Assembly: GCA_964458855.1 (NCBI GenBank)
Contig: CAYWJS010000001.1
Span: forward strand, 6,906-70,905
From: an uncultured Erysipelotrichia bacterium
GTDB lineage: Bacteria > Bacillota_I > Bacilli_A > CAYWJS01
Reading direction: 5' to 3'
Length of the DNA: 64,000 nucleotides
The first letter of the stretch is position 1, and each line of letters opens with the position of its first letter. Of this stretch, positions 15,842 to 48,682 are shown one piece after another. The notes beneath the pieces were generated by a model. The model saw only the letters and a list, made by a program, of their open reading frames with translations. It did no database searches and was not told the DNA's origin. Made by a program: the position numbers and the translations under genes.

Positions 15842-17269
15842 TTACTTTTTCCCCATTTTCTCTGTAATCCATCTTTTTGCTTCCTCAATATCATTAAATG
15901 CTATTTTTTCATCACCAATTTGTTGAGTATTTTCATTTCCCTTTCCTGTAATTAAAACAATATCATTCGGTTCTGCCATAAAAATTCCTTTTTTAATTGC
16001 CTCACTTCGATCAATAATGATTTCAAAATTATTTTTATCTTTAACCTCACTTATCATTTGATTAATAATATCTTCCGGACGTTCACTTTTTGGATCTTCA
16101 CTAGTAAATATTACCCAATCTGCTTTATTAGTTACCACCTCACCCATTATTGGCCGCTTTTCTTTATCACGTTCGCCAGCAGCGCCTAAAACAATGATAA
16201 TTCTGTTTTTGTTTTCAATTTTTTGGATAAAATCTAGTAAATTACTTAAAGCATTAGGAGTGTGCGCAAAATCAACAATTACAGTAAAATCTTGACCAAG
16301 TTCAATGCGTTCCATTCTTCCTTCTATTGTACCAATATTACTAATTAAAGGAATTATTTCATTTAAGTTGAACCCCAAAGCATAAATAGTAGAAATTGCT
16401 GCAAGTAAATTATAAACATTATAAATTCCAAGTAATTTGCTTGTTATTTTATAAGTTCCTTCCTTTGTTACTAACTTAAACTCAGTTTTGTTAGCAAATA
16501 ACTTAATATCTTGTGCCCAAAAATCACTTTTATTATTAATTCCATATGTCAAAACTTTTGCTTTTGTTACTTTCTTTAACTTATCAGTTACTTCTTCATC
16601 GCCATTTAAAATTGCATAACCTTTTGTATTTTCAAAAAGTTTTTTCTTAGCAGCAAAATAATTTTCCATTGTTTTGTGATAATCTAAATGTTCGTGAGAA
16701 AGATTGGTAAAAATAGATATTTCATATTCTAAATCAAAAACCCTTTTTTGATCAATTGCTTGTGAGCTTACTTCCATTACGCAATTATTAATATTATCTT
16801 GCACAAATTCATGAAAAATTTTATGAAGTTCAAGCGGTTCTGGTGTAGTATATCCATAATAGTCATGCTTATTTTTATAAAAAACACCATTTGTTCCAAT
16901 ATAACCAATATTTAAAATGTCTTTTAACATTTGATATATTATTGTTGCTGTCGTTGTTTTTCCGTCTGTACCAGTAATACCAATTAATTTTATTTTATCT
17001 TTTGGGTCGTTATAAAAACGACTTGCAATTTGGGCAAGAGCTTTTCTTGTATCAGAAACAACTATAACGGGAACAGAAACATCTAATGTGCGTTCACTTA
17101 TAATTGCAACTGCGCCGTTTTGAATTACCTCTTCTACTACATCATGATTGTCAAACTTTTGACCCTTGATACAAACAAACAAATCTCCTTTAGTAACCTT
17201 TCGCGAATCTGTTTTAATGCCCAAAATTTCAGTTTCATATTCACAGAAAATTAAATCCTTAAGAATCAT
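15842..17269 (-). CDS. murE: UDP-N-acetylmuramoyl-L-alanyl-D-glutamate--2,6-diaminopimelate (or L-lysine) ligase
   Basis: 475 aa, N-terminal DSRKV..GDLF..KG..DNHD, GITGTDGKTTT P-loop, Mur ligase three-domain layout. Confidence 0.85.
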   Translation of the reverse strand: MILKDLIFCEYETEILGIKTDSRKVTKGDLFVCIKGQKFDNHDVVEEVIQNGAVAIISERTLDVSVPVIVVSDTRKALAQIASRFYNDPKDKIKLIGITGTDGKTTTATIIYQMLKDILNIGYIGTNGVFYKNKHDYYGYTTPEPLELHKIFHEFVQDNINNCVMEVSSQAIDQKRVFDLEYEISIFTNLSHEHLDYHKTMENYFAAKKKLFENTKGYAILNGDEEVTDKLKKVTKAKVLTYGINNKSDFWAQDIKLFANKTEFKLVTKEGTYKITSKLLGIYNVYNLLAAISTIYALGFNLNEIIPLISNIGTIEGRMERIELGQDFTVIVDFAHTPNALSNLLDFIQKIENKNRIIIVLGAAGERDKEKRPIMGEVVTNKADWVIFTSEDPKSERPEDIINQMISEVKDKNNFEIIIDRSEAIKKGIFMAEPNDIVLITGKGNENTQQIGDEKIAFNDIEEAKRWITEKMGKK

Positions 17270-20398: not shown

Positions 20399-20428
20399 AT
20401 AAAAACTTGGCTTATGCCAAGTTATTTA
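20399..20428. terminator. terminator between lipoprotein gene and thioredoxin-like gene
   Basis: aacttggc-ttat-gccaagtt hairpin with flanking A/T runs. Confidence 0.6.
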
Positions 20429-22134: not shown

Positions 22135-23331
22135 TTAAAACTTTACTGGTTTACTTCCTTTTGAACCCTTTATTCCTTTTGTACCATTAAAGTTTTCTAA
22201 AATATTCGCTTCATATGAAAATAAAAGTTTTGTCCTTCTTTTTTCGCGAGCAATAGCAAGTTTTATTAACTCATCTAATAAGTCAACAAAATCTTTTCCT
22301 GATGCATCCCACAAATAGAATGATAAAGAACCAGGAATTGTATTTATTTCATTAACATAAATATCATTTGTTTCCTTATTAATTAGAAAATCAATTCTTG
22401 AGACACCACTTGCAAAAAGAGCTCTAAATGTTTGTTTAGCTAGTTCTTGAATCTTTTCGGTTGTCTTTTCATCTAATTTTGCTGGAATAATTCTTGCTGC
22501 GCCTGCCATACCACTTATACCTTTTTTACCGCCACCTTGGTATTTATCTTCATAACTTAAAATATCATCACTTTTTATTACTTCTTCTAAAACACTTACT
22601 TGTTGATTAGTGTAATCTCCTAAAACACTACAATTTACTTCCATTAGGTTAGAAATAACTTCCTCAACAAGAATTCTTTCATCAAGAACTGATGCAGTCT
22701 CAACGGCAGCAATAAATTCTTTTTCATCATTTGCAATTGTTATTCCAACACTACTTCCAAGAGTAGCAGGTTTTATAATAACTGGATATTGTAATTTTGC
22801 AACTTCTTTTAAAATTTTTTCTTTATTAGTTTCAAATTCACTTGCATAAAACCAAATGTATTTATTCACAGGAAGGTTATTTGCTTTTAAAATATCTTTC
22901 ATAAAAATTTTGTCTTGTCCAACTGCTGCTGCTTTTACTTCACAACCTACATAAGGTACACCAATTGTTTCAAGGTATCCTTGTAGTGTTCCATCTTCTC
23001 CAAATGTTCCATGCATTACAGGAAGTACAACATCAATTACTGTTAAAACTCTTTTAAAACCACTATTTTTTTGTAAAACAATACGACCATTTTTATTTCT
23101 TACTAAATCTACTCTTGTTGCAAATTGCTTAATTGCATCTAAATTCTTAAAGTTTTTAATATTTGTTAGTAAATCTCCTGTGTACCATTCTCCAGACTTT
23201 GCAATATAAATGGGTACTATCTCATATTTTGCTGAGTCTAAAACTCGCATTACTTGTTGTGCTGAAATAATACTAATTTCATGTTCAACACTTTTTCCTC
23301 CAAAAATAACTGCTACTGATATTTTCATCAT
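22135..23331 (-). CDS. ddl: D-alanine--D-alanine ligase
   Basis: 398 aa, N-terminal VAVIFGGKSVEHEISIIS, ATP-grasp; Gly/Lys-rich C-terminal tail. Confidence 0.9.
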   Translation of the reverse strand: MMKISVAVIFGGKSVEHEISIISAQQVMRVLDSAKYEIVPIYIAKSGEWYTGDLLTNIKNFKNLDAIKQFATRVDLVRNKNGRIVLQKNSGFKRVLTVIDVVLPVMHGTFGEDGTLQGYLETIGVPYVGCEVKAAAVGQDKIFMKDILKANNLPVNKYIWFYASEFETNKEKILKEVAKLQYPVIIKPATLGSSVGITIANDEKEFIAAVETASVLDERILVEEVISNLMEVNCSVLGDYTNQQVSVLEEVIKSDDILSYEDKYQGGGKKGISGMAGAARIIPAKLDEKTTEKIQELAKQTFRALFASGVSRIDFLINKETNDIYVNEINTIPGSLSFYLWDASGKDFVDLLDELIKLAIAREKRRTKLLFSYEANILENFNGTKGIKGSKGSKPVKF

Positions 23332-23346
23332 AATATTAACTCCTCC

Positions 23347-24972
23347 CTACTCATTATAATTATCAGGTAAATCATTTTCTATCAGTACATAAGTTTTATT
23401 ATCTTTAATATTTTCTAGATGATTAAATGCATCTCTTAAATCATTTGTTACATATATTTTTTTCTTATCATAACCTACTTCAATTAAACCTTCATAAATA
23501 GGTTTTGTTTGTTTTTTTCCTACCAAAATTGCATAATCACAAACTTTACTAATTTCATATCCTAATTCTTTATTTAACTTTTCCTCTTCTGGTCCAAGTT
23601 CAATCATTCCAGGTGTAATTATTACCTTTTTCCCTGGCATAAGGCTTAATACTTCAAGAGCTGCTTTCGCTCCCTCTGGATTTGAATTAAAGGAATCATC
23701 AATATAAATAATATCATTTTTTATTTTTAATTCCAAGCGATGTGGAACTGGTTTTATATTTTTTGCTCCTTTTATTAAATTGTCATTGTTAATACCTAAG
23801 GCACGAGCAAGAGTAAGACTTGCTAAATTGTTATAAACGTTATGCCTTCCCAATAATTTTGTTTGAATTTTAAGTGGCTTCTTTTCCCCTTTGAAATAAA
23901 CATCAAAACTCATTCCTTCATGACTATAAACAACATTTGTAGCATAAGTATCAGCATTTTTATTATTCATTGAATACCACAATACTTTACATTTATTTTT
24001 TAATTTATAACTTGTTTGTAATTCATCATCCATATTTAATACTGCAATCCCGTCTTCTGGAAGTGCTTCAATAAGTTCAAATTTAGTTTTTTGGATATTT
24101 TTAATTGAACCAAAATACTCAAGATGAGCAGGACCTATTTTTGTTAAAATTCCATATTTAGGTTTTACAAATCTAGTTAATTCTTTGATTTCTCCTGGTT
24201 TATAAGCCCCCATCTCAGCAATAAAAATATCATGAAGAGCACTTAACTCTTTCCTTATTGTAATTGTTAAACCTAACTTTGTATTAATACTGCGCGGAGT
24301 TGCTAAAGAGTTATACTTAGTAAGTAATATTTCATTTAAAAAATTTTTGGTACTAGTTTTTCCATAACTTCCAGTAATACCTACAACTTCCAAGCGCATA
24401 AGTGATCTAATCTTTCTTTTCGCATCATTTATATAATAAAAGTTAATTGATTTTTCTAATGGAAGATTAATAATGGTTCCTAAAATTACAATCAAATATG
24501 AAAGATAAGAAATACTTATAATTGTTAGGAAAAATGTTAAATCATCACCAAATCTAATGCTTAAAAAGATTGCTACTATAATTAACAAACTTATTGTTGT
24601 AATTAATCTTTTAATTTTCGGGGTATAAACTAATGGTTTTTTCTCAAATGTTTTTTTCCAAGTCTTAAATAAAAATAAATAAACACCAAATATTAAAATT
24701 AAGCATAAATAGAAAATTTCACTAAAATCCCTAACATAAAAAGTCCTAATAAAAAGTAGTAAAACTAATTCAAAAGTTAAAAAAACTTCTTTAAAATTTC
24801 TTTTTAACCACTTAAAATAGCGTAGAAATCCGTATTGATTTAACTGAAAAATGTGAATACTCTTTTTTAGTTTTTCAACTAAATACATAAAAAAAGGAAT
24901 TAAAGCACCAATAAATATTATTCTTCCTAATATCCAACTAAAACCCTCTGCTAACAAATTTAATCCATCCAT
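23347..24972 (-). CDS. murF: UDP-N-acetylmuramoyl-tripeptide--D-alanyl-D-alanine ligase with N-terminal multi-TM domain
   Basis: 541 aa. Residues ~185-541 have MurF central/C-terminal domains (VVGITGSYGKTSTK, IDDSFNSNPEGA). Residues 1-~180 are 5-6 hydrophobic helices instead of the MurF N-terminal domain. Confidence 0.8.
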   Translation of the reverse strand: MDGLNLLAEGFSWILGRIIFIGALIPFFMYLVEKLKKSIHIFQLNQYGFLRYFKWLKRNFKEVFLTFELVLLLFIRTFYVRDFSEIFYLCLILIFGVYLFLFKTWKKTFEKKPLVYTPKIKRLITTISLLIIVAIFLSIRFGDDLTFFLTIISISYLSYLIVILGTIINLPLEKSINFYYINDAKRKIRSLMRLEVVGITGSYGKTSTKNFLNEILLTKYNSLATPRSINTKLGLTITIRKELSALHDIFIAEMGAYKPGEIKELTRFVKPKYGILTKIGPAHLEYFGSIKNIQKTKFELIEALPEDGIAVLNMDDELQTSYKLKNKCKVLWYSMNNKNADTYATNVVYSHEGMSFDVYFKGEKKPLKIQTKLLGRHNVYNNLASLTLARALGINNDNLIKGAKNIKPVPHRLELKIKNDIIYIDDSFNSNPEGAKAALEVLSLMPGKKVIITPGMIELGPEEEKLNKELGYEISKVCDYAILVGKKQTKPIYEGLIEVGYDKKKIYVTNDLRDAFNHLENIKDNKTYVLIENDLPDNYNE

Positions 24973-24983
24973 AAAAACCTCTC

Positions 24984-25730
24984 CTACTTAATATTTAAAA
25001 AAATGGCCAAAACTTTCTTAAAGTTTAGAAAATTTTCTAAAAATGCATAATGACCAGAATTTGGGTACTCTACTAAACCACTATTAGGAATTAATTTTTC
25101 CATTGTACGAGCATCACTTATTGGTGTTTCTTCATCATTTGTTCCCCACACTAAAAGGGTTGCTGCTTTAATTTTGGGTAAAAATTCTGTTAAATCTTCT
25201 TCAACTGCATGAACCAATACTTTCCTCATAATTGGAGAAGAATTCCTGTAATCATGCGAACCAATTTTGCTTTTCAAAAAGTCTTCATATTTTTTAATAA
25301 TTGGTATTTTTATTAAAGTTTTATAAATTTTCTTTTTTATCTTTGTAAATAAATTCATCGCTTTTTTACTTTTAATACCAGCACTACTTAAAAGAATTAG
25401 TTTTTCAATTTCGTTTCTTGAAGAATAAACAATAGCAATTCTTCCTCCAAATGAATGTGCTATTAAAATTGGTTTTTTTAGTTCTAATTTTTTAATAAAA
25501 GTTTCTAAAAACTTTGTGTAATCAAAAACATTCCATGGGCTTTTTGGTTCTTCACTTTCACCAAATCCAGGTAAATCAAGAGTTGTTACCCTGAAATTTT
25601 CTTTTAAAAAATCATGAATTGGAAGCATTGTTTCAATTCGTTGCCCCCAACCATGTAAAATTACTATATCTTCACCTGTTCCTTCTTGTAAATATCTAAT
25701 ATTAATTCCTTTAATATTTATAGTTTTCAT
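24984..25730 (-). CDS. alpha/beta-fold hydrolase
   Basis: 248 aa, HGWG oxyanion motif, nucleophile elbow AHSFGG, C-terminal His. Confidence 0.7.
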   Translation of the reverse strand: MKTINIKGINIRYLQEGTGEDIVILHGWGQRIETMLPIHDFLKENFRVTTLDLPGFGESEEPKSPWNVFDYTKFLETFIKKLELKKPILIAHSFGGRIAIVYSSRNEIEKLILLSSAGIKSKKAMNLFTKIKKKIYKTLIKIPIIKKYEDFLKSKIGSHDYRNSSPIMRKVLVHAVEEDLTEFLPKIKAATLLVWGTNDEETPISDARTMEKLIPNSGLVEYPNSGHYAFLENFLNFKKVLAIFLNIK

Positions 25731-25787: not shown

Positions 25788-26840
25788 CTAAAGAAGTGGG
25801 ACACTTTTTGTTAAATTGCGAGGATTATCAATTTCTGTGTTGCGTGCTAAAGCTGTATAGTAAGCAATTAATTGTCCTAAAACAACAGTTACAAAAGAAG
25901 TAAAAAGAAAATGAACTTGAGGTATTATAATATTATCTTTGCTCTCGCTTATATCTTCTAAAGAGATAATAACAACTTTACCTTCTTTATTTGAAATTTC
26001 TTTTATTGCATTCCTTACAACTTTACTGCTTTCTTTTAAAGTGTTAAGTATTATAACGCTTGTTCCTTCCTCAAGCAAAGTAATAGGTCCATGAAAAAAT
26101 TCTTTGATAGGGAGTGCAAATGCTGGAATATAAGCAGTCTCTTTCAATTTCAAACTAATTTCAAGTGTAGCATAAAAGTCAAAACTAGTACCAAGCAAAA
26201 ATATTAATTTATTATCTTTTAAGGAATTAGCTATATTTTGATAAACTGCTTTTTTATTATATAAATTTTGAACTGTACTAGCAACCTTTAAAAGTTCTTC
26301 TTTAATATTAATTGGTTGCCCACTTATTGAATTTGCAAGAATGCTTAGTAAAGCAAGTGTTGCAATAAAACTTTTTGTTGCAGGAATTGAAACCTCTTTA
26401 CCTGCTTCTAAAAAAAGAGAATAATCAGCATTTTTACTTAAATACGAATCTGGAGTATTTGTAATAGTTAGAGTTTTATATCCTAAATCTTTGATTTTTG
26501 ATAAAGCTTCTTTTAAATCACCGGTTTCTCCACTTTGACTAATAATTAAAAAGAAAGAGTTTTCATCAATAAGTGGCATATTATAAACAAATTCGCTTGC
26601 AATAATACTTTCAGCTTTCTTTCTCGCTAATTTTTCAAATAAACTTTTTCCAATTAATCCAGCATGATAAGAAGAGCCAGATGCAATTATATAAATTGTA
26701 TTTGCATTCTTTAATGCATTAAGTATTTCTTTATCAATAAAATAAGTATCTTTTCCAATATATTTTTTTATTATTCTTTTAATAATTTTAGGTTGCTCAC
26801 TTATTTCTTTTAGCATATAATGTTGATACTCGTCCTTCAT
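25788..26840 (-). CDS. tandem-SIS-domain sugar-phosphate isomerase/deaminase (GlmS isomerase-half-like; AgaS/GlmD type)
   Basis: 350 aa with two SIS modules (IYIIASGSSYHAG..., FLLGTSFDFYATLE...); no glutaminase domain. Confidence 0.6.
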   Translation of the reverse strand: MKDEYQHYMLKEISEQPKIIKRIIKKYIGKDTYFIDKEILNALKNANTIYIIASGSSYHAGLIGKSLFEKLARKKAESIIASEFVYNMPLIDENSFFLIISQSGETGDLKEALSKIKDLGYKTLTITNTPDSYLSKNADYSLFLEAGKEVSIPATKSFIATLALLSILANSISGQPINIKEELLKVASTVQNLYNKKAVYQNIANSLKDNKLIFLLGTSFDFYATLEISLKLKETAYIPAFALPIKEFFHGPITLLEEGTSVIILNTLKESSKVVRNAIKEISNKEGKVVIISLEDISESKDNIIIPQVHFLFTSFVTVVLGQLIAYYTALARNTEIDNPRNLTKSVPLL

Positions 26841-26867: not shown

Positions 26868-26897
26868 CAAAAAGTGGTGTTTTCACCACTTTTTTTA
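26868..26897. terminator. terminator after cdaR (agtggtg-tttt-caccact + T-run)
   Basis: Hairpin between cdaR and the SIS gene. Confidence 0.65.
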
Positions 26898-28181
26898 TTT
26901 AGTAATTTCAATAACTATTGTTTCTTTACTACTTTGATAAGTTGCTTTTTTCTCTTTTCCGAGAACTATAACTGGTACAGTATGAGTTCCTACACCTAAG
27001 TTAGTTAAATCAACATATGCTTCTACCGAATCATTAGTAATAGCACTTAAAACATTTTCCGCACCTGTTACAGTTACATCTACTTTGCTGTCTCTTTCTA
27101 AAACAGGACTTACCTTTAAATCACTTCCTAAATTTTTTACTTCAACTGGAATTCCTTCAAGCACTTTTGTTGTAGTTTCCCCTAACTCAACAAGAATTTC
27201 CACTTGATTGATTGACATATACCCTACACCAACAGGTTTTGTTAGATCTTTTGTGAATGTCCTATTTTTTGCAAGATTTGTTACATCTATTTCAACTGGT
27301 ATTGATTCAATATTATTTAAAATATTCATGTCCCCATATATTGTAACTTCATTGTAATTTAGTTTCCAATAACTAATTGCAAGGCCTTCTTTTGGTGTTC
27401 CTTTAGGTATTATTATAATTGGAACTTTCTTATTAATACTTTCAACTTTAATTTCAACTTTTACATTGCTTGGTACAACTTCGACATCAACTGCATTACC
27501 ATCTGAGTCGTATGCAATAAGTTGTGTGTTTTCAAGTTCATGAGTTCCCGCTTTTTTAATATTAGATAAATCTAGTAGCGCTTTTACAAATGCAACTTTT
27601 TCAATGTTTGCTTGTGTTCCTTTTACTATTACTTTGTCTCGATCAATTGTATATTCTGTAATACTTAAGCGTGGATCCATTTTGTCTTTATTAATTAATT
27701 CAATATCAAGATCTTTAGTTGTTGATTGTTTATTATGAATTACAACAGTAATTTTTGAAGGGTCAAGTTTATAGTTAATAGTATTAACAACTTTTCTGTA
27801 TTTTAGTTCTACTTCATGAGTACCTGATTTTAGATCGCTTAAATTAACATAAACTTCATGTCCACCAATTTGTTTAGCAAGTGCAATATCTGAATAACTT
27901 CCAATTAAAGTAATATCAACACTTTCTGGAATTCCTTCTACAACATAAATTTCTCTATTATATTCAGCATGAACTTTTTGATCATAAATAATTTCTGCTG
28001 ATGAATCTGTAAAGTTTAATTTTCCTTTAACAAAGAAGAAAATAAATAAAGTTATTACTAAAGAAAGTATTTTTACATACCTTTTTTGAATTAAAATTTG
28101 TTCAAACCAATTAGAGATAAGTTTTATAAGATTAAGTAAGAAAACTACTGTTTTCTTATAAATTTCAACTATTTTTTTCAT
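26895..28181 (-). CDS. cdaR: CdaA regulatory protein CdaR (YbbR-domain protein)
   Basis: 428 aa, N-terminal TM, repeated YbbR-like beta-rich modules; overlaps cdaA stop. Confidence 0.75.
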   Translation of the reverse strand: MKKIVEIYKKTVVFLLNLIKLISNWFEQILIQKRYVKILSLVITLFIFFFVKGKLNFTDSSAEIIYDQKVHAEYNREIYVVEGIPESVDITLIGSYSDIALAKQIGGHEVYVNLSDLKSGTHEVELKYRKVVNTINYKLDPSKITVVIHNKQSTTKDLDIELINKDKMDPRLSITEYTIDRDKVIVKGTQANIEKVAFVKALLDLSNIKKAGTHELENTQLIAYDSDGNAVDVEVVPSNVKVEIKVESINKKVPIIIIPKGTPKEGLAISYWKLNYNEVTIYGDMNILNNIESIPVEIDVTNLAKNRTFTKDLTKPVGVGYMSINQVEILVELGETTTKVLEGIPVEVKNLGSDLKVSPVLERDSKVDVTVTGAENVLSAITNDSVEAYVDLTNLGVGTHTVPVIVLGKEKKATYQSSKETIVIEITK

Positions 28182-28995
28182 GACTATGACCTCTTTCTTC
28201 CTCAGAAGAACTTGTTTCTAATAATTTATGAAGTTCAACTTTAAACTCATCAATAGTTAAATCATATTGAACTTGCCCATCAACTGCAATTGAAAGTGCA
28301 CCTGTATCTCCTGAAGAAATAATTACAATACAATCAGTTGCCTCACTAATTGTAATTGCGGCTCTGTGCCTTCCCCCAAAATGTGGATTAAAAATTGGCA
28401 TTTGTTTTTGTGGGAAGAATGTGTTTGCACATGATATTTTATTCCCTTGAATTACAACTGCACCTTCATGAAGTGGACTATTTGGGGAAAATATTGTTTG
28501 TAAAAGTTCTGCTGAAATATCTGCATATATTTTTCTTGCTTTTTCAATATATTCTCCTAAACTGACGTTTCTTTCAATAGCAATAATTGCACCAATTTGA
28601 TGCTCTTTAAAATATTCTACTGTTTTTGTAAGTTCTAAAATTAAGTGTTCTTTTTCTCCCAGTGTCATCACTTTATGACGACCAAATAATTGGTTGCGCC
28701 CCAAATCTTCAAGAAATGCTCTAATTTCTGGTTGGAAAATAATAATGATAGCAAGGAACCCCCACATTAAAAAGTGATCTACAATCCAACCTAAAGTTGT
28801 AAGACCTAACCAGTTACTTAAAAGTTTAGTTAAAATAACAATAATTATCCCTTTAACTAATAGTAAAAAGCTTCCCTTTTTTCCCAGTTTTTTTAAGATA
28901 AAATATATTAAAAACCAAACTAGGCTTATATCCAATACATTTTTCAAAAATGCAATGATGCTTTCATAAGTTATTTGTTCTAACATCTTTTTCAC
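28165..28995 (-). CDS. cdaA: diadenylate cyclase CdaA (c-di-AMP synthase)
   Basis: 276 aa, three N-terminal TM helices, DAC domain motifs (HEGAVVI, GGRHRAAI). Confidence 0.9.
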   Translation of the reverse strand: MKKMLEQITYESIIAFLKNVLDISLVWFLIYFILKKLGKKGSFLLLVKGIIIVILTKLLSNWLGLTTLGWIVDHFLMWGFLAIIIIFQPEIRAFLEDLGRNQLFGRHKVMTLGEKEHLILELTKTVEYFKEHQIGAIIAIERNVSLGEYIEKARKIYADISAELLQTIFSPNSPLHEGAVVIQGNKISCANTFFPQKQMPIFNPHFGGRHRAAITISEATDCIVIISSGDTGALSIAVDGQVQYDLTIDEFKVELHKLLETSSSEEERGHSHEKNS

Positions 28996-36740: not shown

Positions 36741-36770
36741 TAAAAAAGAACACGTTTGTTCTTTTTTATT
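36741..36770. terminator. terminator after MurD-like gene (aagaaca-cgttt-tgttctt + T-run)
   Basis: Hairpin between MurD-like gene and P-type ATPase gene. Confidence 0.65.
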
Positions 36771-38151
36771 TTGAGCTATATTTTTTAATTAATTCTTTAT
36801 AATGGTCGCCACGCTCCATAAAGTTTTTATAAAAATCATAACTTGCAGCAGCAGGTGACATTACACAAGCAGTATTTTTAGGTGTTACTTCATATGCTAG
36901 TTTTACTGCTTCTTCAAGACTTTTTACTTGATAAATTTTAATATTTGGATGAATCTTTCCTTTTAAGAGTTTATATACCCTTTCCCCAACATTTAGAAGA
37001 CAAATAATATTATCAACTACATGTTCTTGAAAATATGGAATAAATTTATCATAAGAAATTCCTTTATCATAACCACCAATAATAATTGTACCTACGTTTT
37101 TAACTGCATTTATTGCATTCATAGCACTTTCAGGAATTGTAGAAATAGAATCATTAAAAAACGTTATATTATTAAATGTCCCCACATTTTCCAAGCGATG
37201 AGGAAGTCCAGGAAATTCTTTTATTACATTAAGTGCTTTTCTTAAATCATTAATACCAATAATTTTTAAAATACATAGTATACGAGCAATGTTTTCAAGA
37301 TTAAAATCACCTAGAATCTTTCTTTCAAGATTTGTTTTAGCAATAACTTCTCTTTTTCCTTTATCAACAAAAATAATATCTTCACCCTCAATAAAAATTC
37401 CTCGTTCTGTACCCTTAATTCCGTATGTATATAAGTTTGAGATAACATTTTCGTTTAAAATCTTTTTTGAATTTTCATCATTTGAAATAAGGAGATAATC
37501 ATTTTTAGTTTGATAGCGATAAATATTCTTTTTCGCATTATGATAAGCTTCAATTGTACCGTGGTATTCTAAATGATCTTCATGAAGATTAACAATTAAA
37601 GCTATATGGGGTGAACGTGTTACTTGATCTAGTTGGTGTGATGAAAGTTCAAAAACATATAATCTTTTGCCATCATCACTATTTATTGAATCAAAAGCAG
37701 GTATACCAATATTACCAACAAGTTCAACATCTTGATATTCATTAATAGTAAGTTTAAGAAGAGTGCTTATGGTACTTTTTCCTTTTGTTCCTGTAACGCC
37801 AATAACTCTATCGGCAAATAAATCCAAAAACACCTTTGCTTGATTTACTATCTCTGCATTCGGAAAATATGGGCTTATCTTTCGATAATTTATACCAGGA
37901 GCTACAAAAACATAATTGTACTTTTCTTTTCCATCATCTAAATAATTTTCTCCGCTATAAATTGTAATATTTTCTTCTTTTTTGTCTTCAAAAAAGTTCT
38001 TTGCTACCTCTTCTTTTATTTCAAAAATTGCAATATGCTTATCTGGAAAATGACTTCGTAAAAAATTATATGTTGATTTACCTTCTAATCCAAAACCAAC
38101 AATTGCAATATTTTTATTTGCTATTTGTTCTAAATACTCATTTAGAGTCAT
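36766..38151 (-). CDS. Mur ligase family protein, MurD-like
   Basis: 461 aa. N-terminal Rossmann-like IAIVGFGLEGKST, P-loop GVTGTKGKSTIST, ELSSHQLD, C-terminal Mur ligase domain. Start overlaps the upstream PP-loop gene by 14 nt. Confidence 0.8.
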   Translation of the reverse strand: MTLNEYLEQIANKNIAIVGFGLEGKSTYNFLRSHFPDKHIAIFEIKEEVAKNFFEDKKEENITIYSGENYLDDGKEKYNYVFVAPGINYRKISPYFPNAEIVNQAKVFLDLFADRVIGVTGTKGKSTISTLLKLTINEYQDVELVGNIGIPAFDSINSDDGKRLYVFELSSHQLDQVTRSPHIALIVNLHEDHLEYHGTIEAYHNAKKNIYRYQTKNDYLLISNDENSKKILNENVISNLYTYGIKGTERGIFIEGEDIIFVDKGKREVIAKTNLERKILGDFNLENIARILCILKIIGINDLRKALNVIKEFPGLPHRLENVGTFNNITFFNDSISTIPESAMNAINAVKNVGTIIIGGYDKGISYDKFIPYFQEHVVDNIICLLNVGERVYKLLKGKIHPNIKIYQVKSLEEAVKLAYEVTPKNTACVMSPAAASYDFYKNFMERGDHYKELIKKYSSK

Positions 38152-39493
38152 TTTTAATCATCCTTTCAAATTCTAATGGCAAAAGATTTTCTTTATTATA
38201 ATAAGTAAGGGGATTTGTATGTATTTTTTCATTTGGATACTTTTCTAAATAATATTTAAGTAAAGCAGGGAACTTTTTTTCTTTTTTTCTTAATAAATCT
38301 AAAGCATATTTTACTTCTTCAATTGTTCCAACACATTCAAATGGTTTAATGCTTGTCTCTCCAATTAATTTTTTAAAGATTGGAAGAAGATTCTCATCAT
38401 CTAGTAAATCCTTACCAAATATTTGAATGAGTTCAGAATGTTCAAGGAATGGTGCAAGAATAATATAAACAAATAAGCATTTTGGACAAGTACAGCACCA
38501 AATGTTTTCTTTGCTTCCACGATTACAACTTCTAAATGCAGAGAAATATTTTTTATGTTTAGAAAATTCATAAGCAATTTTAATTTCCTTCCAAGGACGT
38601 AAGAAACTAAAATAGTTTATGTTATTTGTAATATATTTATGGACATAATTGTTAAAATCTTTTTCAAATTCAAAACTTTTTGAATATTGGTGATTTATGT
38701 TTGTTCCTAAAATAGTTGGTTCATTTGCACTTGCTTCATTAGATAAAACAATATATTTTTTTCCCTTTAAAGCAGCAGTTAAAATAGAAATAAAAGCAAA
38801 TCCTGCTGAAAGTGGAATATGACCATTTAAGAACCCTTCTTCATTTAATTTAAGTAAGGTAGGATCAAGATATCTTTTTATTAAAATTCTGTCTTCTTCA
38901 TTGTAACCTGCAATATGAACTGAGTCTTTTGCTGCTATAGTTGGATTTATTAAAAGAACATTATTTTCTTTTTTCTTTTCTTTTAAAAGTTCTAAAGTTA
39001 CTATTGAGTCTTTCCCACCACCAACAGGAATAATATTTCCATTTACTAATAAATTGTTATTTACTTGAAATTTCTTATTACCTATTGATTCAATCTTAAT
39101 AAACTCTTCTTCTTTTATGAAATCATATAGTTTATTTAGATAAAGCATTTCCCCTAAACCTTTATAATATAATTTTTGCCACCAATTTATTTGTTCTTCA
39201 TCTAAATTATTAGGCATTACTAAAAAAAATTTACTACATGTAAGTTTCCAATAACTAATTGCTTCAATCATTCCTAAGTTAAAAACAATATTTTGAATAA
39301 CTTCAGAATCTAAGTTACTTTTTAAAGTAAAGTTTTTATAAATTGTAAGTCTATGATTAAAAGGAATGATTTCTTCTCCGTTTAATTCATACTGATAAGT
39401 TATTTCAATAGACTCTTCTTTTTCTTCAATTTTGAAATCACGATAAATAAATTTTGGATATTTTTTATTTAAATTTTCATAAATCTTTAACAT
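38138..39493 (-). CDS. PP-loop ATP pyrophosphatase superfamily protein of unknown function (candidate adenylating epimerase/amidotransferase acting with the MurD-like ligase)
   Basis: 451 aa. PP-loop IIPVGGGKDSIVTL (SGGxDS-type) at ~aa 155-165, Cys cluster WCCTCPKC near aa 325, no N-terminal glutaminase domain. Confidence 0.55.
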   Translation of the reverse strand: MLKIYENLNKKYPKFIYRDFKIEEKEESIEITYQYELNGEEIIPFNHRLTIYKNFTLKSNLDSEVIQNIVFNLGMIEAISYWKLTCSKFFLVMPNNLDEEQINWWQKLYYKGLGEMLYLNKLYDFIKEEEFIKIESIGNKKFQVNNNLLVNGNIIPVGGGKDSIVTLELLKEKKKENNVLLINPTIAAKDSVHIAGYNEEDRILIKRYLDPTLLKLNEEGFLNGHIPLSAGFAFISILTAALKGKKYIVLSNEASANEPTILGTNINHQYSKSFEFEKDFNNYVHKYITNNINYFSFLRPWKEIKIAYEFSKHKKYFSAFRSCNRGSKENIWCCTCPKCLFVYIILAPFLEHSELIQIFGKDLLDDENLLPIFKKLIGETSIKPFECVGTIEEVKYALDLLRKKEKKFPALLKYYLEKYPNEKIHTNPLTYYNKENLLPLEFERMIKNDSK

Positions 39494-47905: not shown

Positions 47906-48682
47906 TTATCCTCGTGTTGTTTTTACACCAAAATCTAGTTTTAATTTATCAGCAATTGCTGCAACAAATTCTGAATTTGTTGGTTTTGCTCTTTCAATGT
48001 CAACGCTATTTCCAAAAATTTCTTCCATTACTGCCCAATCTCCACGATTCCAAGAAACTTCTATTGCATGCCTTATTGCTCGTTCTACTCTACTTACGGT
48101 AGTCTTATATTTTTTTGCTATTTCAGGATAAAGTACTTTTGTTACCGCTCCAATATATTCATCACTTGAAAACATCCGAACAATTCCTTCGCGAATATAT
48201 TGATATCCTTTAATATGGGATGGGAGTCCTAAAGCATGAAGAATTTTTGTAACTTCTATTTCTAAATCGTTTTGTACTCCGCGTACTAAGGTGCCTTTTT
48301 GAGTCTCATTGTTAAAACATTCAATTATTCTTTTTTCTAAATCGATTAGTTCAAAAGGTTTAAGAATAAAATAACTTGCCCCCATTTCAGAAAGTCTTCT
48401 AATTGTGTCTTGTTGGTTAAATGAAGTAGCAATAATTACTTTTTTGTCAATATTTCTTCTTTTCATTTCTTCTAAAACATAAATCCCATCTTTTACGGGC
48501 ATTATTAAATCAAGAATAACAAGATCATAATCATCCTGTCTTTCATCAATGATTTTTATTCCTTCTTCACCATTATAAGCTTCTAATACAAGTTCAATTT
48601 GTGAATGCCCCATAAAATATTCGCAAACTAACTTAATTAAATTAACATTATCATCCACCATCAGAACTCTAATTTTTGACAT
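47906..48682 (-). CDS. spo0A: stage 0 sporulation response regulator Spo0A
   Basis: 258 aa. Receiver domain (MVDDN...DLVILDLIMP), Spo0A-specific effector domain (GLPSHIKGYQYIREGI, TTVSRVERAIRHAIEVSWNRG, KPTNSEFVAAIADKL). Confidence 0.9.
   Translation of the reverse strand: MSKIRVLMVDDNVNLIKLVCEYFMGHSQIELVLEAYNGEEGIKIIDERQDDYDLVILDLIMPVKDGIYVLEEMKRRNIDKKVIIATSFNQQDTIRRLSEMGASYFILKPFELIDLEKRIIECFNNETQKGTLVRGVQNDLEIEVTKILHALGLPSHIKGYQYIREGIVRMFSSDEYIGAVTKVLYPEIAKKYKTTVSRVERAIRHAIEVSWNRGDWAVMEEIFGNSVDIERAKPTNSEFVAAIADKLKLDFGVKTTRG

Follow-up and report, generated by a model that had tools for sequence, protein, structure and literature searches.

How can MurF, the ligase that adds D-Ala-D-Ala to the peptidoglycan precursor, do its work when the place of its first domain is taken by membrane helices? 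This question is raised by a gene on contig CAYWJS010000001.1 of an uncultured Erysipelotrichia bacterium (assembly GCA_964458855.1), of which a stretch of 64,000 nucleotides (nt), referred to here as the window, was analysed. The open reading frame (ORF) at 23347..24972 on the (-) strand encodes a protein of 541 amino acids (aa), designated transmembrane MurF (TM-MurF), in which a five-helix membrane domain is followed by the MurF central and C-terminal domains. MurC to MurF are conventionally presented as soluble enzymes of the cytoplasm. An earlier note on this DNA had proposed that the first domain of MurF was replaced by five to six hydrophobic helices, which would tether D-Ala-D-Ala addition to the membrane, and that this could be a gene fusion or a lineage-specific coupling to MraY. 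The reading that we favour, with a probability of roughly 0.55, is that TM-MurF would be a membrane-integral D-Ala-D-Ala-adding enzyme, in which cytoplasmic loops replace domain 1 for the use of uridine diphosphate (UDP)-N-acetylmuramic acid (MurNAc)-tripeptide and from which the product is released by the side of MraY.

The central and C-terminal domains recognised in the earlier note were confirmed. In Pfam, Mur_ligase_M (PF08245) matches residues 199-388 (E 9e-46) and Mur_ligase_C (PF02875) matches residues 411-529 (E 9.6e-12), which places the central ATP-binding domain at 23809..24378 and the C-terminal domain at 23386..23742, both on the (-) strand. Among the NCBIfam models, TIGR01143 (murF) is the top match with 247.2 bits over profile positions 68-403 of 418, and the other Mur models score far lower (MurC 95, MurD 94 and MurE 88 bits). 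TM-MurF does not reach the cut-off of this curated full-length model (288.6 bits), because the match spans only that part of the profile, and it is also below the cut-off of the equivalog NF008041 (172 bits vs 551). When the protein was compared with the PDB using phmmer, residues 188-487 aligned with residues 94-393 of 1gg4, and residue 94, where this alignment begins, is the start of domain 2. The best Foldseek matches of the AlphaFold2 (AF2) model are MurF structures too (4qf5, 3zl8, 4cvm and 1gg4, over about 365 columns).

The catalytic residues are intact. The P-loop G198-x-T-G-S-Y-G-K205-T206 is invariant in the 59 homologues, and the same is true of E253, H283, K297, N313/D315/D316, R412 and D425-D426..N429-S-N-P432. 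Since all these residues of the Mur ligases are invariant, they argue that TM-MurF is an active enzyme, and its chemistry is probably that of MurF. The C-terminal domain contains the motif D425-D-S-F-N-S-N-P432, which aligns with DDSYNAN of the E. coli enzyme, and C-terminal motifs of the DD(S/T)YN(A/S)NP type are specific to MurF. The catalytic body is of the MurF type, and the gene is linked to ddl. Canonical MurF (E. coli 1gg4, A. baumannii 4qf5 and T. maritima 3zl8), the best match in both sequence and fold, has the same central and C-terminal domains, P-loop and metal/carbamate-site residues, as well as the DDxYNxNP-type motif and the adjacency to ddl. In the window, TM-MurF begins about 14 residues before most homologues, whose start is just ahead of the first transmembrane helix (TM1). 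The 541-aa product with this extension was called on all 13 contigs that carry it; the extension may therefore be genuine, or translation may in fact start at a later codon.

Compared with canonical MurF, which has a soluble uridine-binding domain at its N-terminus (E. coli residues 1-81), TM-MurF has an unrelated five-helix domain. The canonical N-terminal domain forms the uridine-ribose pocket (PMC11569785). When the profile of the N-terminal 190 residues was compared with that of the canonical MurF N-domain, hhalign gave a probability of 0.1%, whereas the profiles of the catalytic parts matched at 100% (E 1.7e-46). PF01225 is absent from TM-MurF and present in canonical Paenibacillus MurFs, and a soluble uridine-binding domain 1 is thus missing from the protein. 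Because the catalytic parts match and the N-terminal profile shows no such relation, domain 1 is, on this profile evidence, replaced and not diverged; a diverged domain 1 hidden in the N-terminus was considered and rejected at the probability of 0.1%. The absence of domain 1 and its exchange for a genuine multi-helix membrane domain, as the earlier note had supposed, are also consistent with the start of the 1gg4 alignment at residue 94. No known family could be assigned to the new domain. Residues 1-190 matched no Pfam family in the scan, no consistent Pfam family and no NCBIfam match were found for the membrane domain, and no significant fold match was present in the PDB (best E 1.8).

The membrane domain (residues 1-190, 24403..24972, (-) strand) was modelled well in isolation, with an AF2 predicted local distance difference test (pLDDT) score of 89.7, and the full-length protein gave a pLDDT of 90.5 and a predicted template modelling (pTM) score of 0.84. 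From hydropathy and the AF2 model, TM1 was placed at about residues 10-32 (24877..24945), TM2 at about 62-80 (24733..24789), TM3 at about 85-103 (24664..24720), TM4 at about 122-141 (24550..24609) and TM5 at about 147-170 (24463..24534), all on the (-) strand. The Kyte-Doolittle profile of TM-MurF shows these five hydrophobic segments and none comparable past residue 200, and the hydropathy averaged across the 59 homologues shows the same five peaks. Of the five to six helices proposed earlier, the membrane-spanning nature is therefore upheld, and the number is five by hydropathy, not six. In the AF2 model, TM5 is a single helix (158-190) that runs directly into the P-loop strand (195-200), and the membrane domain accordingly sits at the chain position of domain 1, immediately before this strand. 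The mean number of lysine plus arginine residues in the homologues is 7.1 in loop 1, 6.5 in loop 3 and 5.7 in the segment after TM5, vs about 0-0.6 in the N-terminus, loop 2 and loop 4. By the positive-inside rule, this alternation predicts an N-out/C-in topology, in which the catalytic part should face the cytoplasm. This prediction supports the membrane tethering that had been suggested for the catalytic part.

Although identity among the homologues is about 33% in the N-terminal part, compared with about 58% in the catalytic part, 15 N-terminal positions are invariant. Cytoplasmic loop 1 contains the invariant or nearly invariant motif H40-x-L-Q43-Q-N45-x-Y47 ... R51-Y52 .. W55 ... N59 (24796..24855), in which Q43, N45, Y47, R51, Y52, W55 and N59 are invariant. 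In the homologue alignment, cytoplasmic loop 3 contains K111-P-L114 .. T117-x-R119 .. R122-L .. T126 (24595..24642), with K111, L114, T117, R122 and T126 invariant across the loop and the start of TM4, and the cytoplasmic end of TM5 contains the invariant N169-x-P171-x-E173-K (24451..24468), with N169, P171 and E173; all three motifs are encoded on the (-) strand. H40, L42, Q44, R119 and L123 are nearly invariant. Written for the family, the loop motifs are HxLQ(Q/L)NxY..RY..W, KKPLxxTxRxxRL and NxPxEK, which are basic and aromatic, and they are retained in the Bacillales branch. All of the invariant N-terminal residues lie on cytoplasmic loops or helix ends, and the membrane-embedded segments are poorly conserved. 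The surface that the membrane domain exposes where membrane and cytosol meet is conserved, basic, aromatic and rich in amides.

The family was found to be widespread. A search of 5.8 billion proteins, from which the best 120 homologues were taken for details, gave at least 7999 TM-MurF homologues; these best 120 are 505-541 aa long, have about 50% identity and cover 91-97% of the query (most 94-97%). A hidden Markov model (HMM) built from just the membrane domain matched 1579 clusters (50% identity level) among 1.84 billion representatives. The best 150 of these clusters were listed, and the presence of a MurF body was checked on the full-length ones that could be inspected. Among the listed matches of at least 480 aa, 23 of 26 contain the strict P-loop pattern at about positions 181-214, and the other three have variant P-loops when aligned. 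The separate small membrane-protein gene that might have been expected upstream of murF in relatives was not clearly present in any of those inspected, and the full-length membrane-domain matches that could be inspected all carry a MurF body. A stand-alone membrane domain was rejected on the matches listed from the representatives, among which the short ones look like fragments or frameshifts.

A motif scan with one genome per species, using a motif that misses the window protein itself (HIFQLNQY), gave 548 or more loci among uncultured low-GC Bacilli. The carriers include Clostridium sp. CAG:1000, CAG:524 and CAG:417, Acholeplasma sp. CAG:878 and Ca. Coprovivens, the last of which has been placed in order RF39, family CAG-1000 (PMC8035907). 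Through divergent members, the protein was traced to cultured Bacillales, namely Evansella cellulosilytica, Salipaludibacillus, Alteribacillus, Alkalicoccus, Gracilibacillus, Geomicrobium, Salicibibacter, Gorillibacterium and several Paenibacillus, and to metagenome-assembled genomes (MAGs) labelled Clostridiaceae or Firmicutes. TM-MurFs share 41-61% identity over the full length. Their catalytic part is 27-35% identical to that of canonical Firmicutes MurF (Bacillus or Monoglobus), whereas these two canonical enzymes are 39% identical to each other. When the catalytic parts were placed in a neighbour-joining tree, all TM-MurFs grouped together as a single clade with a long branch, in which the RF39 group has the window protein as its sister. 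From this broad spread and single clade, TM-MurF is read as an old, coherent subfamily and not as a recent lineage-specific fusion. The lineage-specific status considered earlier did not hold, as RF39-type Bacilli, Bacillaceae, Paenibacillaceae and Clostridiaceae-labelled MAGs all carry the protein. Firmicute-type module loci were also seen in MAGs labelled Muribaculaceae, Bacteroidaceae and Bacteroides helcogenes (e.g. L005, L006, L042 and L067), and these contigs are most likely mis-binned or mislabelled. Among plasmids, no TM-MurF was found, and the matches were canonical murF on mislabelled chromosomes and megaplasmids. In the databases, TM-MurF proteins are labelled MurF or 'Mur ligase family protein'. 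We found no description of a membrane-integral MurF in the full-text literature, and neither this architecture nor its location in the membrane nor its dedicated module has, as far as we found, been described.

TM-murF belongs to a module of three genes. In the window, it is immediately preceded by a gene for an alpha/beta-hydrolase of 248 aa (24984..25730, (-) strand), and a gene for a long D-Ala-D-Ala ligase of 398 aa (22135..23331, (-) strand) follows directly downstream, as the earlier note had stated, after 15 nt. The genes of the module are 11-15 nt apart, and the row of genes continues into acpS. The order alpha/beta-hydrolase, TM-murF, ddl was found in 63 of 80 RF39-type loci, and most of the others end at contig edges; ddl adjoins TM-murF in 66 of the 80 loci and in four cultured genomes. 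The same trio is present in E. cellulosilytica (locus L081), G. salinarum (L083), Paenibacillus sp. (L082) and P. phyllosphaerae (L087), and beyond the trio no neighbour is conserved across the loci. The hydrolase is cytoplasmic, and its best match, below threshold, is to the EstV lipase family (147 bits vs 300). In H. pylori, estV lies between ddlA and murF, and a wider tie of this hydrolase family to the D-Ala-D-Ala step would follow.

At 391-404 aa, the module Ddl is long (further examples are L081 11574-12788 and L087 9586-10782). It clears the cut-offs of the D-Ala-D-Ala ligase subfamily (NF002528, 343 bits vs 262), is far under every Van ligase cut-off (242 vs 495 for VanG) and keeps the Lys-Tyr of dipeptide-forming ligases. 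Its omega loop is extended by a variable insertion rich in Gly and Lys and contains a conserved KGM, and its C-terminus has a basic tail, S..NIL...G.KG.K; the insertion, the KGM and the tail are common to RF39 and Bacillales. This tail may be a membrane- or partner-binding element. In the two Paenibacillus loci (L082 12795-14615 and L087 10802-12663), genes for a Peptidase_M15 protein (VanX family) and for a protein of 364-382 aa, for which no Pfam match was found, follow ddl. This arrangement resembles a van cluster but is without VanH, VanT and VanRS.

The architecture, topology, conservation, module and intact catalytic residues are thus shown, and from them a mechanism can be proposed in which the acceptor, the task of the loops, the hand-over to MraY and the status as working MurF are inferred. 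Through the five TM helices, the central domain, which binds ATP, and the C-terminal domain, which binds D-Ala-D-Ala, would be kept at the cytoplasmic side of the membrane, where the conserved cytoplasmic loops, in place of domain 1, would bind the acceptor at its nucleotide-diphosphate end. The co-transcribed long Ddl would supply D-Ala-D-Ala, and TM-MurF would ligate it, driven by ATP, to the carboxylate of meso-diaminopimelate (mDAP) in UDP-MurNAc-tripeptide coming from soluble MurE. The product, UDP-MurNAc-pentapeptide (Park's nucleotide), would leave the enzyme at the surface of the membrane, beside MraY, and in this small genome TM-MurF would serve as the working MurF. The coupling to MraY that the earlier note had supposed is plausible. 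The window encodes a canonical soluble three-domain MurE of the mDAP-adding type (15842..17269, (-) strand; NF001126 541 bits, DYAHTP motif) and a soluble canonical MurD (36766-38151, (-) strand; TIGR01087 292 bits), and the presence of these ordinary enzymes implies that the tripeptide precursor is made as a nucleotide. Peptidoglycan of the mDAP type has been predicted for RF39 (PMC10868615).

Several points weigh against this proposal. First, the module is patchy within Paenibacillus and Bacillaceae, and other Paenibacillus species have a canonical MurF in the division and cell wall (dcw) cluster, which suggests that TM-MurF is an accessory paralogue in large genomes and that its job there may differ from that of the housekeeping MurF. 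Among the best 120 matches to the canonical MurF of P. cellulosilyticus, no overlap with the carrier genomes in species name or assembly accession was seen. Second, the VanX-like M15 peptidase in the Paenibacillus module fits poorly with a plain supply of D-Ala-D-Ala. Third, members of the superfamily without the UDP-binding N-domain, such as MurT, use non-UDP substrates, which would favour a lipid-linked acceptor. Finally, it is only from the topology of the chain that the conserved loops are predicted to lie near the active site.

A lipid-linked acceptor is an alternative that we consider unlikely. Here, the membrane domain would bind the undecaprenyl-pyrophosphate of a tripeptide form of lipid I or lipid II, whose stem TM-MurF would complete on the membrane, and MurF would act after MraY. 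The sole domain lost is the one that recognises uridine (PMC11569785), and an integral membrane domain stands at the same acceptor-site end, an exchange to be expected if undecaprenyl-pyrophosphate were the handle of the substrate. Basic residues are conserved at the membrane interface, where they would be apt to bind a pyrophosphate, and the basic tail of the Ddl partner could bring Ddl to the membrane. In addition, Foldseek also finds MurT of the MurT/GatD lipid II amidotransferase (9sq9 and 6gs2), which has a Mur-ligase fold without such an N-domain. MurT acts on lipid II, a membrane-bound lipid-linked precursor; its C-terminal domain is DUF1727, and its partner is GatD. Unlike TM-MurF, however, MurT is soluble or peripheral; the C-terminal domain of TM-MurF is of the MurF type (PF02875), the MurT models give 31-44 bits on it (NF045635 42 and NF052464 31) vs cut-offs of 800, so that it is not a MurT, and no GatD-like gene adjoins the module in the window, where the neighbours are the hydrolase and ddl. 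A further difficulty concerns the acceptor itself. The MurE of this genome is an ordinary enzyme for UDP substrates, so the tripeptide arises as a nucleotide, and MraY would therefore have to work on the tripeptide form, a poor substrate in those species that have been studied. UDP-MurNAc-tripeptide accumulates under D-cycloserine. The poor conservation of the membrane-embedded segments is not what binding of a lipid would lead one to expect, and the invariant Q, N, Y and W residues are polar, cytoplasmic and suited to a base or sugar.

Could the trio instead be a paralogous cassette that works beside the housekeeping MurF and Ddl, together with a VanX-like peptidase in Paenibacillus? We regard this as rather improbable, and equally so the roles that such a cassette would have, which are building or restoring an alternative stem end (e.g. 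D-Ala-D-X) or serving sporulation or alkaline/saline stress. It would agree with the long-branch clade away from the canonical Bacillus, Paenibacillus and Monoglobus MurFs and the lower identity to them (27-35% vs 39%), with the patchy occurrence in genera whose other species keep canonical murF in the dcw cluster, with the Peptidase_M15 gene and the 364-382 aa gene after ddl in Paenibacillus, with the modified omega loop of the module Ddl, and with the halophilic or alkaliphilic, spore-forming nature of many of the cultured carriers. There are also precedents. VanT is a membrane-bound serine racemase, and glycopeptide-resistance clusters carry extra MurF copies. In VanT, as in TM-MurF, an N-terminal domain of several membrane helices is joined to a cytoplasmic enzyme of precursor synthesis, and the extra copies are an example of a second MurF devoted to an alternative dipeptide. 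In contrast to the Van clusters, however, the partner ligase of the TM-MurF module scores as a Ddl, keeps the Lys-Tyr of D-Ala-D-Ala-forming enzymes and stays far below all Van cut-offs, and the membrane domain is unrelated to any modelled family. No VanH, VanT or VanRS was found in the window or in L081-L083, and only the loci from Paenibacillus carry the VanX-family peptidase. Moreover, at least 548 RF39-type genomes have kept the module, and the only complete RF39 chromosome in the set (the MAG OZ006981.1) is 1.31 Mb; at such a genome size, two parallel sets of MurF and Ddl are not expected. This retention argues that TM-MurF and its Ddl are the working pair in RF39-type genomes. In the window, the module also adjoins acpS and a ydcC-like lipoprotein gene, and the housekeeping ddl-murF pair of B. 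subtilis is located near those genes.

A passive anchor, in which the helices merely tether a self-sufficient two-domain ligase, to localise it or to let it dock to MraY, MurG or the flippase, and have no role in substrate binding, is very unlikely. The weak conservation of the membrane segments, with an N-terminal identity of about 33% against 58% in the catalytic part, would be in line with it. PgsB/CapB, a poly-gamma-glutamate synthetase of the Mur amide-ligase family, is N-terminally membrane-anchored in a membrane complex, but it has a single anchor helix, another substrate and no MurF-type C-terminal motif. Both PgsB/CapB and TM-MurF are thus membrane-anchored Mur-family ligases, and no PgsB/CapB match was obtained for TM-MurF in the NCBIfam scan. 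In other bacteria, soluble MurF is recruited to complexes of membrane proteins, as in the shape complexes of H. pylori, in which MurF occurs with the transmembrane protein Csd5 (PMC9507126). One helix would suffice for an anchor, however, and the five helices would go unexplained; the 15 invariant residues of the cytoplasmic loops are kept between RF39 and Bacillales, and, as the whole uridine-binding domain is lost, something must replace it. The possibility that a mis-assembly, a sequencing error or a missed stop fused a small membrane-protein gene to a truncated murF, which the earlier note had named as a risk, is negligible and was rejected, as nothing was found in its favour, with the identical 541-aa protein present on 13 independent contigs from various sequencing runs and assemblers, a single uninterrupted ORF of 506-538 aa in 76 of 76 complete loci (of 80 related loci), and the same architecture in the finished genomes of cultured strains (CP002394.1 and CP095071.1).

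The window contains other genes for wall synthesis and sporulation. Extra Mur ligases near the module in six loci, and the one at 15842-17269 of the window, were considered as a second canonical MurF and rejected, as they are MurE. A protein of 451 aa (38138-39493, (-) strand) matches the MurL model with 268.6 bits, below the cut-off of 700, and the end of its gene overlaps the start of murD by 14 nt. MurL is the UDP-MurNAc-L-Ala-L-Glu epimerase of Xanthomonadales. This gene suggests that the host, a low-GC Firmicute, adds L-Glu and then epimerises it, instead of using a glutamate racemase. A protein of 350 aa (25788-26840, (-) strand) corresponds only to the isomerase half of GlmS, which has two SIS domains; it matches positions 247-598 of 601 in the NF001484 profile, and a glutaminase domain is absent. 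Its gene comes directly after cdaA (28165-28995) and cdaR (26895-28181), which is the usual place of glmM/glmS in Firmicutes. Because a Spo0A with receiver and Spo0A_C domains is encoded at 47906-48682 on the (-) strand, the host, for all its small genome, is probably a spore former, which agrees with predictions for RF39 (PMC10868615). A terminator-like hairpin was seen at 20404-20423, after the lipoprotein gene. The promoter scan was uninformative in this AT-rich DNA, with 63 promoter-like sites vs 68 expected.

In conclusion, we have described a MurF whose first domain gave way to a five-helix membrane domain in an old subfamily with its own gene module. The finding has several consequences. 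MurF is an antibiotic target, and its inhibitors bind a pocket formed with domain 1. Inhibitors directed to this domain would probably not bind TM-MurF, because the pocket-forming domain is absent. If the acceptor were lipid-linked, hundreds of gut Bacilli, and Bacillales by an accessory route, would carry out the last 'cytoplasmic' precursor step on the membrane after MraY, and the order of steps given in textbooks would change. Direct tests are within reach, since the tractable cultured carriers include Evansella cellulosilytica DSM 2522, Gracilibacillus salinarum and Paenibacillus phyllosphaerae. TM-MurF can thus be regarded as a natural test of the hand-over from the last soluble step to MraY, by channelling or possibly through a lipid-linked acceptor, and it bears on how the cell wall is built in RF39-type gut bacteria with reduced genomes.

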